Shown piece after piece: positions 18,878-24,342 of a DNA stretch of 33,887 nt. Both the position numbers and the translations under genes were made by a program. Under the pieces are notes generated by a model, which had not been told where the DNA came from, did no database searches, and saw nothing but the letters and a program-made list of their open reading frames with translations. Within the stretch, counting starts at the first letter, position 1. Each line of letters begins with the position of its first letter. This stretch comes from a virus (lineage: Duplodnaviria > Caudoviricetes): IMG/VR virus record IMGVR_UViG_3300032290_000864, positions 1 through 33,887 of that record; one strand, written 5' to 3'.

Positions 18878-19519
18878 CTAAACTACGTCATCCGGGTTAA
18901 CTGTCAAGGGCGATTGCGCCACCGGCAACCCGAGCGCACGCCGCCGGATCGGATGTATCCACGGCTCGGCCTTTACGTGATCCGCTCGATGTGGCTTGAC
19001 CGTCTTTTTCCGTGGCTCGTGCGTCACCACGCCCACGGTATACGCCGTGATCTGCCGTTCGCCGACCATCACCCACGACCGGCCCAGCTTATGGCTGTTC
19101 GCCAGTTTGCCGCACGTCGTCCGGATACTCTGCGGCAGGATCTGCGGCAGCAGCTTGGCAAGCTTCGCCGTCGTCAGTGGCCCGTGCTGGTGTATCATGG
19201 CCAGAATCGACGCCCCGATCGTCTCCTTCTTCTTGGCCGGCGCCGGATCGTGACGGCATTGGTCGATCGGCGTCCACTGGCTCCGCGAGCCTTTCATGCC
19301 AGGACTGCGCGCCGTCGCCACGGCCGCGACCGTGCCTGCCTCAATGACGGCGCCGCGCGGCGAATGCCGGCCGGCGGCGATCTGACGGAACCGCTGGTCG
19401 ACCGCGTCCCAACTCGCCAGCACTTCCCCGCCGGTGATCTTCCTCACCAGATATTGCTCGTCGTGGACCAGCGTAATGACGCGGCGGTCACGATACGTCG
19501 CGTAGTCCTGATCGGTCAT
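18878..19519 (-). CDS. hypothetical protein with C-terminal winged-helix DNA-binding domain
   Basis: ILAMIHQHGPLTTAKLAKLL...SIRTTCGKL wHTH pattern. Confidence 0.6.
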   Translation of the reverse strand: MTDQDYATYRDRRVITLVHDEQYLVRKITGGEVLASWDAVDQRFRQIAAGRHSPRGAVIEAGTVAAVATARSPGMKGSRSQWTPIDQCRHDPAPAKKKETIGASILAMIHQHGPLTTAKLAKLLPQILPQSIRTTCGKLANSHKLGRSWVMVGERQITAYTVGVVTHEPRKKTVKPHRADHVKAEPWIHPIRRRALGLPVAQSPLTVNPDDVV

Positions 19520-21373: not shown

Positions 21374-21401
21374 ACAATACATCGCATTTGCTACGTGTCA
21401 A
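21374..21401 (-). promoter_or_regulatory. putative sigma70 early promoter with AT-rich upstream region
   Basis: TTGACA-16 nt-TATTGT, with A-tracts immediately upstream (21402-21435). Confidence 0.7.
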
Positions 21402-21429: not shown

Positions 21430-21948
21430 TTTTTTCCGCACATAGCGGAGCCATACCCGGTCACCACCGCTTTTCCGGTGACCGTGCGTCGGATCTCTTG
21501 GACCCGTCGACTCTCCGAAAGAGCCGGCAAACGGACTGGCCATCGCATGGCGCTCCTGCCCGCGCTCGCCCGCTCAACGAGTCGCGCCCTCGGAGGGTAC
21601 CTATCGGCCAGGATGTGCGGCCGTGGAACAGCAGCTCGAGCGTTGGTGACCGGCCGGGATGTAGGCTCGACAGCGCCCGGATTGGTGGAACACGCTCGTC
21701 TGGATCGCTTAGGATTGGTGCGCGCAGGGTCCGCATAGCGCAATCGGGAAAGCAACGGTAAGCCCGATCACCCGCCGTCGGTTCTTCGCCTAGACGGGTC
21801 GTACCAACAGTACCGACCGACCGACGGACCCGCAAGACACAAAAAGACCCCAGCGAAGAACTGGAGTCTTTTGCATGGCCGTCTTGCGACGCCACTAGCC
21901 TGTTGCGGACAGAGATCGGCCGGCCGCTTGCGCGCCGTCACCGACCCC
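21430..21948 (-). ncRNA. candidate large structured non-coding RNA (~520 nt), family not recognised
   Basis: Dedicated promoter; more than 10 hand-identified stems; G-U pairs that work only on the minus strand; two GCAA tetraloops; no convincing long ORF. Confidence 0.55.
21836..21872 (-). terminator. intrinsic terminator-like hairpin (end of the lysis operon and/or of a ~110-nt small RNA)
   Basis: AAAAGACUCCAG-UUCUUCG-CUGGGGUCUUUU followed by UGUGUCUU. Confidence 0.7.
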
Positions 21949-21951
21949 CCG

Positions 21952-21980
21952 AATATGCCGCCCAGCGCGCGCGCTGTCAA
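21952..21980 (-). promoter_or_regulatory. putative sigma70 promoter firing into the non-coding region
   Basis: TTGACA (21980-21975)-17 nt-CATATT (21957-21952), starting 3 nt after the holin stop. Confidence 0.7.
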
Positions 21981-21983
21981 CGG

Positions 21984-22316
21984 CTAGCCAAGCTCCGCCG
22001 TCGTCGCTTTGCGCTTGTTCTTGATCCAATGCAGCGCCATCGCAATCAGCGCCGCAATCGCCGTCTCGACCGTCGCGACCGGCAACGTCGCCAACCCGTC
22101 GACCGACTCGCCGCTCACGCCAAAGTTGACCCCGGCCAGATTGCCTAACGCCGTAAACAGCGCCGCCACCGCGACCACCACGCCGCGCTTCTGCCACGCC
22201 GGGAGCGCCTCCACCTGGCGAACGCCGACCTTCAACCACTGCATCGCCAGCATCGCCAACGGCGCCACGACCAGCGACAGCCCGTATTCCACCACCTTCA
22301 GCTTAACCCAATCCAC
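21984..22316 (-). CDS. putative holin
   Basis: 2-3 hydrophobic helices and a basic C-terminus; follows the endolysin; GGGGGG SD. Confidence 0.65.
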   Translation of the reverse strand: MDWVKLKVVEYGLSLVVAPLAMLAMQWLKVGVRQVEALPAWQKRGVVVAVAALFTALGNLAGVNFGVSGESVDGLATLPVATVETAIAALIAMALHWIKNKRKATTAELG

Positions 22317-23223: not shown

Positions 23224-24342
23224 TTACCATCCGGCCGCCGGAAACGTCCCCGTTTCCAGCCGCTCCGCACAGACCGTTAGCAAATCGTCATAGATCCGGC
23301 CGACCTTCGGGACCGAGTACAGCCGGATCGCCCGCGCTCGGATATACCCGCGATCGAGCTCGAGCACGCGATCGACCGCCGACGCGAATTGGTTGATCGT
23401 CTGCGCGCGGAACCCCGTAATCCCGTGCTGCACCGTTTCCGAGAACGCGCCGAAGTCCGACGTGATCGCCGGCGTGCCGCATAACGCCGCCTCAACGACC
23501 GCGCCGCCAAACGGCTCGACGTACCGGCTCGGCGCAATAATCGCCCGCGCGCCACCCAACAGCGCCGCCCGCTCCGGACCGAGCGCGCCCACGTATTCTA
23601 CGTTCGCCGGCAGGTCGCCCCACACGTCGATGTCGCCCTGACCCGCCAGGACAAACCGCACATCCGGCCGACGCCGCGCCACATCAAGCACGATCCCGAC
23701 GCCCTTGCCTTCTGTTAGTCGCCCGAGGAACACCACTGGCGCGCCCGCCCGATCTATCGCCGGACCCGCCGGCCAATCCGCCACGTCGTAGTAATTGGGC
23801 GCGACGAACTCTAGCCGATTGGATTCTACCGTGACGCCGTACCGCCCCTCCTTCGCCATCACCGCGTGCCGGACCGCGTACGACTCGTACACCCGCCACG
23901 GGAGCAGCGTATCGAAGTACCCGATCCCCGACTCGATCGCGCCCGCGCCGGCCGCAAGCACCGGCAACCCGCGGATCGCCGCCCCGTGCGCGTGACCGAA
24001 CGGACACAAGATTAAGTCGCCAGGCTCAACCCGCTCGCGCAGCTCCTCGCGCGCGTAGTGATTCCACTGCCGGTAGCAGTCGTTCCCGTCGACCGCATCC
24101 GCGCCGTATAGCGCCGTCCCGTGCGCGTACGGATGCCCGAGCAACGTCTGGTGCTCGTCCTGATCCATCAGCACGACATCGACGTCCGCGCCCGCGCTCG
24201 AGCCGGCCACGCCGTAATGCGTGACGTGATGCCCGAACGCCCGCAGCATCGGCCCCAATCGCCGGACCTTTTGCGTAAACGCGCAATGACTCCACGCCGC
24301 GTCGGTCACGGTATGGGGAACCCCGAGCACATGAAGCCGCAT
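23224..24342 (-). CDS. GT4-family glycosyltransferase
   Basis: GHHVTHY, FLGRLTEGKG and PSRYVEPFGGAVVEAALCGTPAITSD.GAFSETV.HG.TGF (E-X7-E) motifs; GGGAGG SD. Confidence 0.92.
   Translation of the reverse strand: MRLHVLGVPHTVTDAAWSHCAFTQKVRRLGPMLRAFGHHVTHYGVAGSSAGADVDVVLMDQDEHQTLLGHPYAHGTALYGADAVDGNDCYRQWNHYAREELRERVEPGDLILCPFGHAHGAAIRGLPVLAAGAGAIESGIGYFDTLLPWRVYESYAVRHAVMAKEGRYGVTVESNRLEFVAPNYYDVADWPAGPAIDRAGAPVVFLGRLTEGKGVGIVLDVARRRPDVRFVLAGQGDIDVWGDLPANVEYVGALGPERAALLGGARAIIAPSRYVEPFGGAVVEAALCGTPAITSDFGAFSETVQHGITGFRAQTINQFASAVDRVLELDRGYIRARAIRLYSVPKVGRIYDDLLTVCAERLETGTFPAAGW

Follow-up and report, generated by a model that had tools for sequence, protein, structure and literature searches.

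A conserved multi-pseudoknot RNA predicted to stand in for the replication initiator gene in a group of tailed phages

Introduction

How does a tailed phage start the replication of its DNA when no replication gene can be recognised in its complete genome? This question is raised by the window analysed here, a stretch of 33,887 bases that represents a complete phage record with terminal repeats. All recognised genes of the window lie on the minus strand, in the order head, tail, lysis and then an early block that comprises an ERF recombinase, a 3'-5' exonuclease and a VRR-NUC nuclease. Comparison of its open reading frames with PHROGs and Pfam named no initiator, primase, helicase or polymerase, and a six-frame search of the same genome (G000) gave no initiator, primase-helicase or DnaB match. 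The window also contains a 213-aa gene with a winged-helix-like segment (18878-19519, minus strand) that is absent from the other clustered genomes, and which leaves room for a protein initiator of an unrecognised type.

An intergenic element separates the putative holin (21984-22316) from the first early gene. For this element an earlier note, made from the letters of the window alone, had proposed a single promoter-driven, structured RNA of ~520 nt, possibly a pre-primer resembling ColE1 RNA II. Comparison with homologs supports the view that the conserved part of this element belongs to an uncatalogued family of structured RNAs from small uncultured phages, made in the promoter's direction, and good comparative evidence suggests that this RNA replaces the replication initiator.

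Organization of the intergenic region

The region carries the following features, whose promoter and transcript assignments are predictions:

21952..21980, minus strand: promoter-like site 1 (TTGACA-17-CATATT), which would drive the upstream small RNA; retained in loci L003, L004 and L005
21836..21946, minus strand: upstream small-RNA unit of ~110 nt, with two GNRA-capped hairpins and a terminator
21842..21872, minus strand: intrinsic-terminator-like hairpin; a hairpin with a T-run stands at the same place in 10 of 10 aligned rows
21807..21835, minus strand: promoter-like site 2 (TTGCGG-17-TACTGT), with a predicted start of the core RNA near 21800
21444..21768, minus strand: predicted conserved multi-pseudoknot RNA core, 283-337 nt (median 298) across homologs
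21374..21401, minus strand: promoter-like site 3 (TTGACA-16-TATTGT), for the early genes (ERF recombinase, exonuclease)

The promoter-like site at 21980-21952 and the terminator-like hairpin at 21872-21842, both described in the earlier note, are present. Because the terminator and promoter-like site 2 split the stretch, and the conserved part begins only at 21768, it is probably not the single 520-nt RNA that had been proposed; the stretch probably consists of two units, a ~110-nt RNA running from promoter to terminator, followed by a second promoter-like site and the conserved core. Three of the stems drawn earlier (GGGUCCG/CGGACCC, GUCGGU/ACCGAC and GGUC-GUAC/GUAC-GACC) overlap promoter-like site 2 and are lost in relatives.

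The upstream unit, which holds the two 5' hairpins and the terminator already drawn in the note, folds well on its own (z -3.34, with 1 of 200 shuffles equally stable). It lies outside the conserved family and is replaced by unrelated units in relatives: the promoter-small RNA-terminator arrangement of the window (21946-21836, minus strand) is common only to L003, L004 and L005, and other clade members have unrelated units of ~100-150 nt at this position. A search of the genome for a target of this small RNA found none, and within the region it has no complement longer than 9 nt.

Minimum free energy (MFE) folding of 536 nt was no better than that of dinucleotide shuffles (z -0.55 for the minus and -0.39 for the plus strand), and in sliding windows z fell below -4 only over the terminator, at variance with the statement that the region folds almost end to end. 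By the shuffle test alone, which the note had named as a refutation, the proposed structured RNA would fail, and it is the comparison of homologs that rescues it; MFE folding is uninformative for the core because its real fold appears to be a multi-pseudoknot that such methods cannot see.

Homologs of the core

The first homolog loci were obtained through protein searches with the endolysin and the ERF recombinase, and nine distinct relatives share the intergenic region. Ten rows gathered in this way, without any RNA pattern, already show double changes at 26 of 48 predicted pairs. Further homologs were detected by sequence patterns and nhmmer. Patterns from the 5' part yielded 73 and 10 viral, 12 genome and 80 metagenome loci, many of them chance matches, and nhmmer combined with end motifs gave 132 full-length copies in 228 loci, or 62 at 95% identity. 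With seven divergent or hand-cut rows added, the final alignment comprises 69 non-redundant rows with a mean identity of 51%. Columns fixed by the search patterns are invariant by construction; outside them, 15 columns are at least 97% conserved, including the unpaired A108, C116, C122, C311, A435 and U436.

A coding function was considered and ruled out, as no frame is conserved among the 69 rows: core lengths fall into the three classes modulo 3 in 33, 21 and 15 rows, and the best frame is open in only 10 of 69. The absence of a credible long ORF, as stated in the note, thereby holds for the whole family. Promoter-like sites (TT...TAxxxT) were found 8-41 nt ahead of the first helix, P1, in 22 of 69 rows and 122-153 nt ahead of it in 23, one row having both, in a loose scan with no shuffle control; another 23 rows have no such site within 260 nt ahead of P1, and copies without one directly follow a gene on the same strand.

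The Rfam check suggested in the note returned no known family for the window or 34 homolog loci: there were no matches in Rfam 15 at the gathering score for the window and 14 loci, and a search of 20 loci at E<=1 gave one terminator-like chance match only, outside the core. Two short stretches, CAAUCCUGA and AAAUCCGGGC, are what we take to be short resemblances to group I intron and RNase P RNA; their covarying partners are presumably at odds with both folds, and neither RNA gave an Rfam match. Against 72,556 plasmid records, blastn reached a best E of 0.09 at 12% cover, and a search of annotated phages gave no match to the RNA. A literature search, whose coverage left out most subscription papers, found neither this RNA nor a phage RNA replacing Rep described. 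A fragment of it may be among the anonymous entries of the 10,000 viral candidates mentioned in the accessible text of PMC10690425.

Fold of the core

Covariation among the homologs supports seven nested-type helices, six pseudoknot crossings and one base triple. The predicted elements, all on the minus strand, are:

21706..21768, minus strand: 5' H-type pseudoknot, formed by P1 (21768-21763/21748-21743) and PK1 (21754-21750/21710-21706)
21739-21734/21728-21723, minus strand: P2, within the 5' pseudoknot region
21761·21750-21710, minus strand: predicted triple, C·C-G or U·U-A
21698-21692/21643-21637, minus strand: P3 (region 21637..21698), which encloses P4 and crosses P5
21680-21670/21662-21654, minus strand: P4, 100% and 99.5% paired
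21623-21619/21609-21605, minus strand: P6 (region 21534..21623), with a loop pseudoknot to 21546-21541
21595-21592/21556-21553, minus strand: P7
21581-21578/21568-21565, minus strand: P8
21731-21729/21536-21534, minus strand: P2 loop pairing
21653-21645/21465-21457, minus strand: P5, which binds the 3' end
21666-21664/21452-21450, minus strand: P4 loop pairing, which binds the 3' end
21574-21569/21449-21444, minus strand: P8 loop pairing, which binds the 3' end

The six crossings are those of the P1 loop with the strand after CAAUCCU (H-type), the P2 loop with 21536-21534, P3 with P5, the P4 loop with the 3' GGC, the P6 loop with 21546-21541 and the P8 loop with the 3' tail. Along the last 22 nt, P5, the P4 loop and the P8 loop follow one another as pairing partners, and in the 3'-end region (21444..21465) 96.6% and 99.0% of cells are paired; for P1 and PK1 the values are 99.5% and 98.8%.

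In an unguided scan for mutual information, the top 17 places were all taken by canonical pairs. The 11 helices comprise 55 named pairs, at which 95.0% of cells are paired; double changes occur at 45 of these pairs. The covariation score is 0.561, whereas shuffles give 0.163 and slid partners reach no more than 0.104. On a tree that was built from all columns, the tested ones included, the changes at most pairs are concerted (e.g., 13/13, 11/11 and 13/13 changes). Of 30 tested pairs, 23 surpass all of their matched control columns. The triple's own pairs make up three of the remaining seven, each equalled by one control column, as fits the triple's third member, and four are weak (25:79, 54:330 and 126:438, and 140:431 with one change only). 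Three poorly aligned helices were assessed by swapping partners among rows in 2000 permutations, none of which reached the observed value for P3 (17.0 vs 12.9), P8, or the P8 loop with the 3' tail (16.5 vs 10.5); in the controls, 851 (P2 loop with tail) and 24 of the 2000 did so.

At the triple positions 60 rows have C, C, G and nine have U, U, A, with no mixed combination, and all seven changes are concerted on the tree, at least five of them being forced by strong branches. Given established pseudoknot geometry, we infer that 21761, 21750 and 21710 would form a pyrimidine-purine-pyrimidine triple in the groove of the pseudoknot.

Cells with G-U outnumber those with A-C by 152 to 48, by 100 to 48 without one U-G column, and by 60 to 32 when P2 is left out as well. 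This excess favours the minus strand, in agreement with the note. Roughly half of the stems listed there lack support from homologs. Among those backed are UGAUCGGG/CCCGAUUG, which corresponds to P1, CGAGCGU/ACGCUCG, which is P3, and CUCG/CGAG, which is P8. The local hairpin CGGUCACC/GGUGACCG is not conserved, and its 3' arm covaries instead with 21653-21645; similarly, UCCGC/GCGGA is not conserved, and the P8 loop is the partner of UCCGCU. The local hairpin at 21484-21458 (minus strand), present in the window and its two closest relatives, duplicates the 5' arm of P5 and could compete with the long-range P5 helix. Two further pairings were considered and dropped, that of 21553-21549 with the 3' UGG and that of the A4 columns 236-243 with 323-328, for which 1136 of 2000 permutations scored as high.

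Exchange of the RNA and predicted initiator genes

A single head and tail module is common to twelve near-complete genomes with the RNA, which in all of them lies between the lysis and the early genes. In four phages of the same clade the RNA is absent and a predicted replication initiator occupies its slot. One case came from a capsid search: genome G040 has a full early region without the RNA and a new 204-aa gene in the slot. Its locus (L372) and that of RNA-bearing G058 (L373) have flanks that are 91.8% and 90.0% identical, and between these flanks lies the 204-aa gene in one and the RNA in the other; the similarity stops in a shared promoter-leader and resumes at the ribosome site of the next gene. 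The 204-aa protein matches phrog_9474 and phrog_2509, annotated 'replication initiation protein' (E 4e-17 and 1e-9), and its gene has short direct repeats of the 12-bp type in the middle. The best viral matches of its protein model are 'Primosomal protein 1' (E 7e-5) and 'Replisome organizer' (E 5e-4); Pfam gave no match for the protein, and among solved structures the model found no clear match (best Z 4.6).

An unbiased tally of the slot, made with the flanking gene as query, covered 32 loci, many of them near-duplicates. The RNA is present in 23, a partial RNA at a contig end in one and Rep in three, and no locus has both; four have neither within 4.5 kb, and one was too short to be informative. 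Two other complete genomes of the clade, G056 and G466, have Rep and no RNA; G466, like G465, was found using Rep as query. On two protein trees the RNA/Rep state needs three changes, at least two of which are forced by strong branches. Independent swaps are few, and many records are near-duplicates. The slot also holds methyltransferase, ParB-like and unknown genes, which marks it as an insertion hot spot.

The exclusion extends beyond the slot. Whole records were searched in six frames with initiator-family profiles, covering 29 RNA-bearing records (16 of them at least 90% complete) and 12 RNA-less comparison records. None of the 29 matched phrog_9474, phrog_270 or PF13730, and only one matched phrog_678, weakly (a winged-helix protein in G004, E 2.6e-5), whereas 11 of the 12 RNA-less records have an initiator-family match. 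The remaining one, the unrelated phage G033, has neither the RNA nor an initiator match, which indicates that the profile searches miss initiators. The pattern recurs with another head module: in G001, which carries the RNA, neither an initiator nor a helicase was matched, and its head relatives G021, G023, G025, G026, G028, G054 and G055, whose major capsid proteins are ~69-74% identical, have an initiator and a helicase and no RNA. The exclusion of RNA and initiator is hence genome-wide and observed in two head families. A third head module is present in G008 (L267 9383-10905), which has the RNA together with a DnaB-like helicase, missed by gene calling and found by the six-frame search, and no initiator-family match; a 141-aa gene upstream shows a weak likeness to the C-terminal part of the G054 and G055 initiators.

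In G007 (L237 12832-13117; L391) the RNA is inverted relative to all flanking genes and has its own promoter-like site, which suggests that it is a self-contained module.

Proposed function

As the RNA sits where close relatives carry a predicted initiator gene, it likely starts phage DNA replication. That it has a role in initiating replication as RNA, either as a primer or as a more active initiator, we consider probable, and within this we lean towards a core that serves as an RNA-initiated replication origin in place of Rep, working as a ColE1-like primer. In such a scheme host RNA polymerase would transcribe the core from the promoter in front or by read-through, and the folded RNA would stay with its 3' end on its own template as an R-loop. 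Host RNase H would trim the RNA to a 3'-OH, which host Pol I would extend; replication would then pass to the restart primosome of the host, following the ColE1 pattern. The pairings of the three upstream segments with the last 22 nt may hold the R-loop open. If the 3' end of the RNA forms a hybrid with the template, its sequence recurs in the displaced DNA strand, which could take over these pairings, and covariation cannot separate the two. In a ColE1-type replicon, an A-run marks the RNA-to-DNA switch; the A-run seen after the element in the window recurs, as four or more A within 25 nt of the core end, in only 15 of 69 rows. Of the note's replication hypothesis, the general idea is strongly and independently backed by the Rep-for-RNA swap in sister phages, while the boundaries of 520 nt and the analogy of the A-run do not stand.

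A more far-reaching version, which we regard as rather doubtful, would see the RNA as a compact machine, functionally equivalent to an initiator protein, that holds the displaced strand clamped by its three segments, maintains an open origin and supplies its own primer by making or presenting it, perhaps through catalysis; that tailed phages freely swap such a machine with lambda-O-like Rep genes belongs to the same version and is equally doubtful. If true, it would account for phages in which replication genes seem to be missing.

Other explanations of the swap were weighed against the primer model. The RNA could have a different job, such as an ornate assembly like ROOL or GOLLD, an anti-defence decoy or a regulator of the early operon, with replication left to an unrecognised protein or to recombination and the swap reflecting a mere hot spot. 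The slot does accept other genes, and clade members commonly have an ERF recombinase and exonucleases, but we find this reading unlikely given an exclusion that spans whole genomes and recurs in two head families, a copy in G007 whose inversion speaks against a cis-acting leader, and the finding that only virion, lysis and glycosyltransferase families are common to all 12 clustered RNA-bearing genomes. An RNA that initiates actively, by opening or holding the duplex for helicase loading and host primase or by cleaving itself as a ribozyme to make the 3'-OH, would account for the same Rep/RNA swap. For a primer the RNA is unusually complex, with its six crossings, its triple and 15 columns in which conservation is at least 97%, and G008 retains a helicase with no initiator match. 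For this candidate activity no catalogued ribozyme was matched, and the conserved unpaired bases may only make tertiary contacts; the proposal is improbable as well. Dense pseudoknots and triples are typical of RNA, and this counts against an element acting as folded single-stranded DNA. Such a DNA signal, which transcription or rolling-circle replication would expose for priming or for loading a helicase, is very improbable in view of the promoter-like sites just upstream in 22 rows and retained in the inverted copy, the G-U excess and the position of promoter-less copies directly 3' of a same-strand gene, even though covariation cannot tell RNA from single-stranded DNA, 23 of 69 rows have no promoter-like site within 260 nt, and PMC5737381, in its accessible part, raises this option for plasmid motifs such as GEBRO.

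If the primer model is true, the family would represent a third, unrelated RNA-initiated design besides ColE1 and MRB, found in tailed phages, and would explain how complete phage genomes lacking replication genes replicate. It would also show what one class of 'ornate' phage RNAs does and provide a new protein-free origin for engineering. The near-isogenic natural pairs, in which Rep versus RNA is the sole difference, make the model directly testable with a 600-bp fragment, and with six crossings and a covarying triple in 300 nt the RNA is a strong structural target.

Comparison with known systems

ARRPOF, PAGEV, GEBRO, ROOL, GOLLD and OLE are among the Rfam models, and none of these matched the window or the homolog loci. 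As far as the available sections of PMC5737381 describe them, ARRPOF, PAGEV and GEBRO resemble the phage RNA as structured motifs of 223-349 nt tied to replication, ARRPOF lying in a region that replicates without its rep gene; they are plasmid-borne, and the phage RNA has no Rfam match. ROOL, GOLLD and OLE are likewise large multi-pseudoknot RNAs of bacteria and phages (see PMC12286853), ROOL having 581 nt and three pseudoknots (PMC5737381, same sections). Compared with these, the phage RNA is half-sized, has more crossings per base and is tied to the initiator slot.

The available part of PMC3035462 describes two plasmid families, ColE1 and MRB, with RNA-initiated replicons. The likeness to the RNA II of ColE1/pMB1 lies in a promoter-driven structured RNA in the initiator's place and the lack of Rep, according to the origin scheme outlined in the accessible portions of PMC4555960 and PMC12966454; RNA II is a plasmid RNA of 555 nt, whereas the RNA described here occurs in tailed phages, has ~300-350 nt and adopts a predicted multi-pseudoknot fold. 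It has no sequence similarity to RNA II or RNA I (blastn against plasmids, Rfam), no conserved A-run and no conserved antisense RNA I, for which a consensus promoter scan gave sites scattered in 13 of 69 rows and none in the window. By analogy, the best reading is that the phage RNA may be ColE1-like in its working, yet not a member of that family. The MRB replicons of Vibrionaceae are similar in having a Rep-less, RNA-based origin unrelated to ColE1 in sequence, and differ as plasmids with two partly complementary RNAs, RNA I being ~68 nt (PMC3035462, as far as available); in the phage RNA no complementary RNA pair was seen, and the plasmid database gave no match.

Genomic context and shared leaders

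The window shows no switch of GC skew at the element; a switch near 21430 was among the checks suggested in the note. At fourfold sites of shared structural genes, G007, with the inverted RNA, has the lowest skew of 12 genomes (-0.118 vs 0.015-0.43); it is one case, and Rep-bearing G040 is also near zero. Fourfold-site skew is 0.32-0.45 in the window's subclade (G000, G006, G012, G014, G015 and G041) and ~0-0.11 in the sister subclade. A glycosyltransferase gene (23224-24342, minus strand) stands beside the tail and lysis genes of the window and occurs in 11 of the 12 clustered genomes of the clade. The phrog_1 profile, presumably that of an integrase, gave one weak match in 25 records.

With regard to hosts, five of the 12 genome hits are true matches, all on phage-like contigs in bins (two Gemmatimonadaceae, and one each of Mycobacterium, Rubrivivax and Gammaproteobacteria), and the capsid gene was found in two of 401 Gemmatimonadaceae-family genomes. 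No holder of the RNA was present among 20 sequencing runs listed; relatives at 90-99% occur in four DNA runs from four studies, which are uninformative on expression.

Variation is observable around the core as well. L063, L068, L137 and L141 have an extra hairpin inserted after P6 and leader repeats, CGGTG / CCGACAC, upstream. A leader consisting of a promoter and a long hairpin (GGCCCC...GGGGCC, then T-rich) is shared by L372 (4800-4960), L373 (4150-4300), L377 (4780-4935), L375 (2950-3105) and L420 (5870-6000), where it precedes Rep, the RNA or a ParB/methyltransferase gene alike, and it may be an attenuator that controls replication in both designs.
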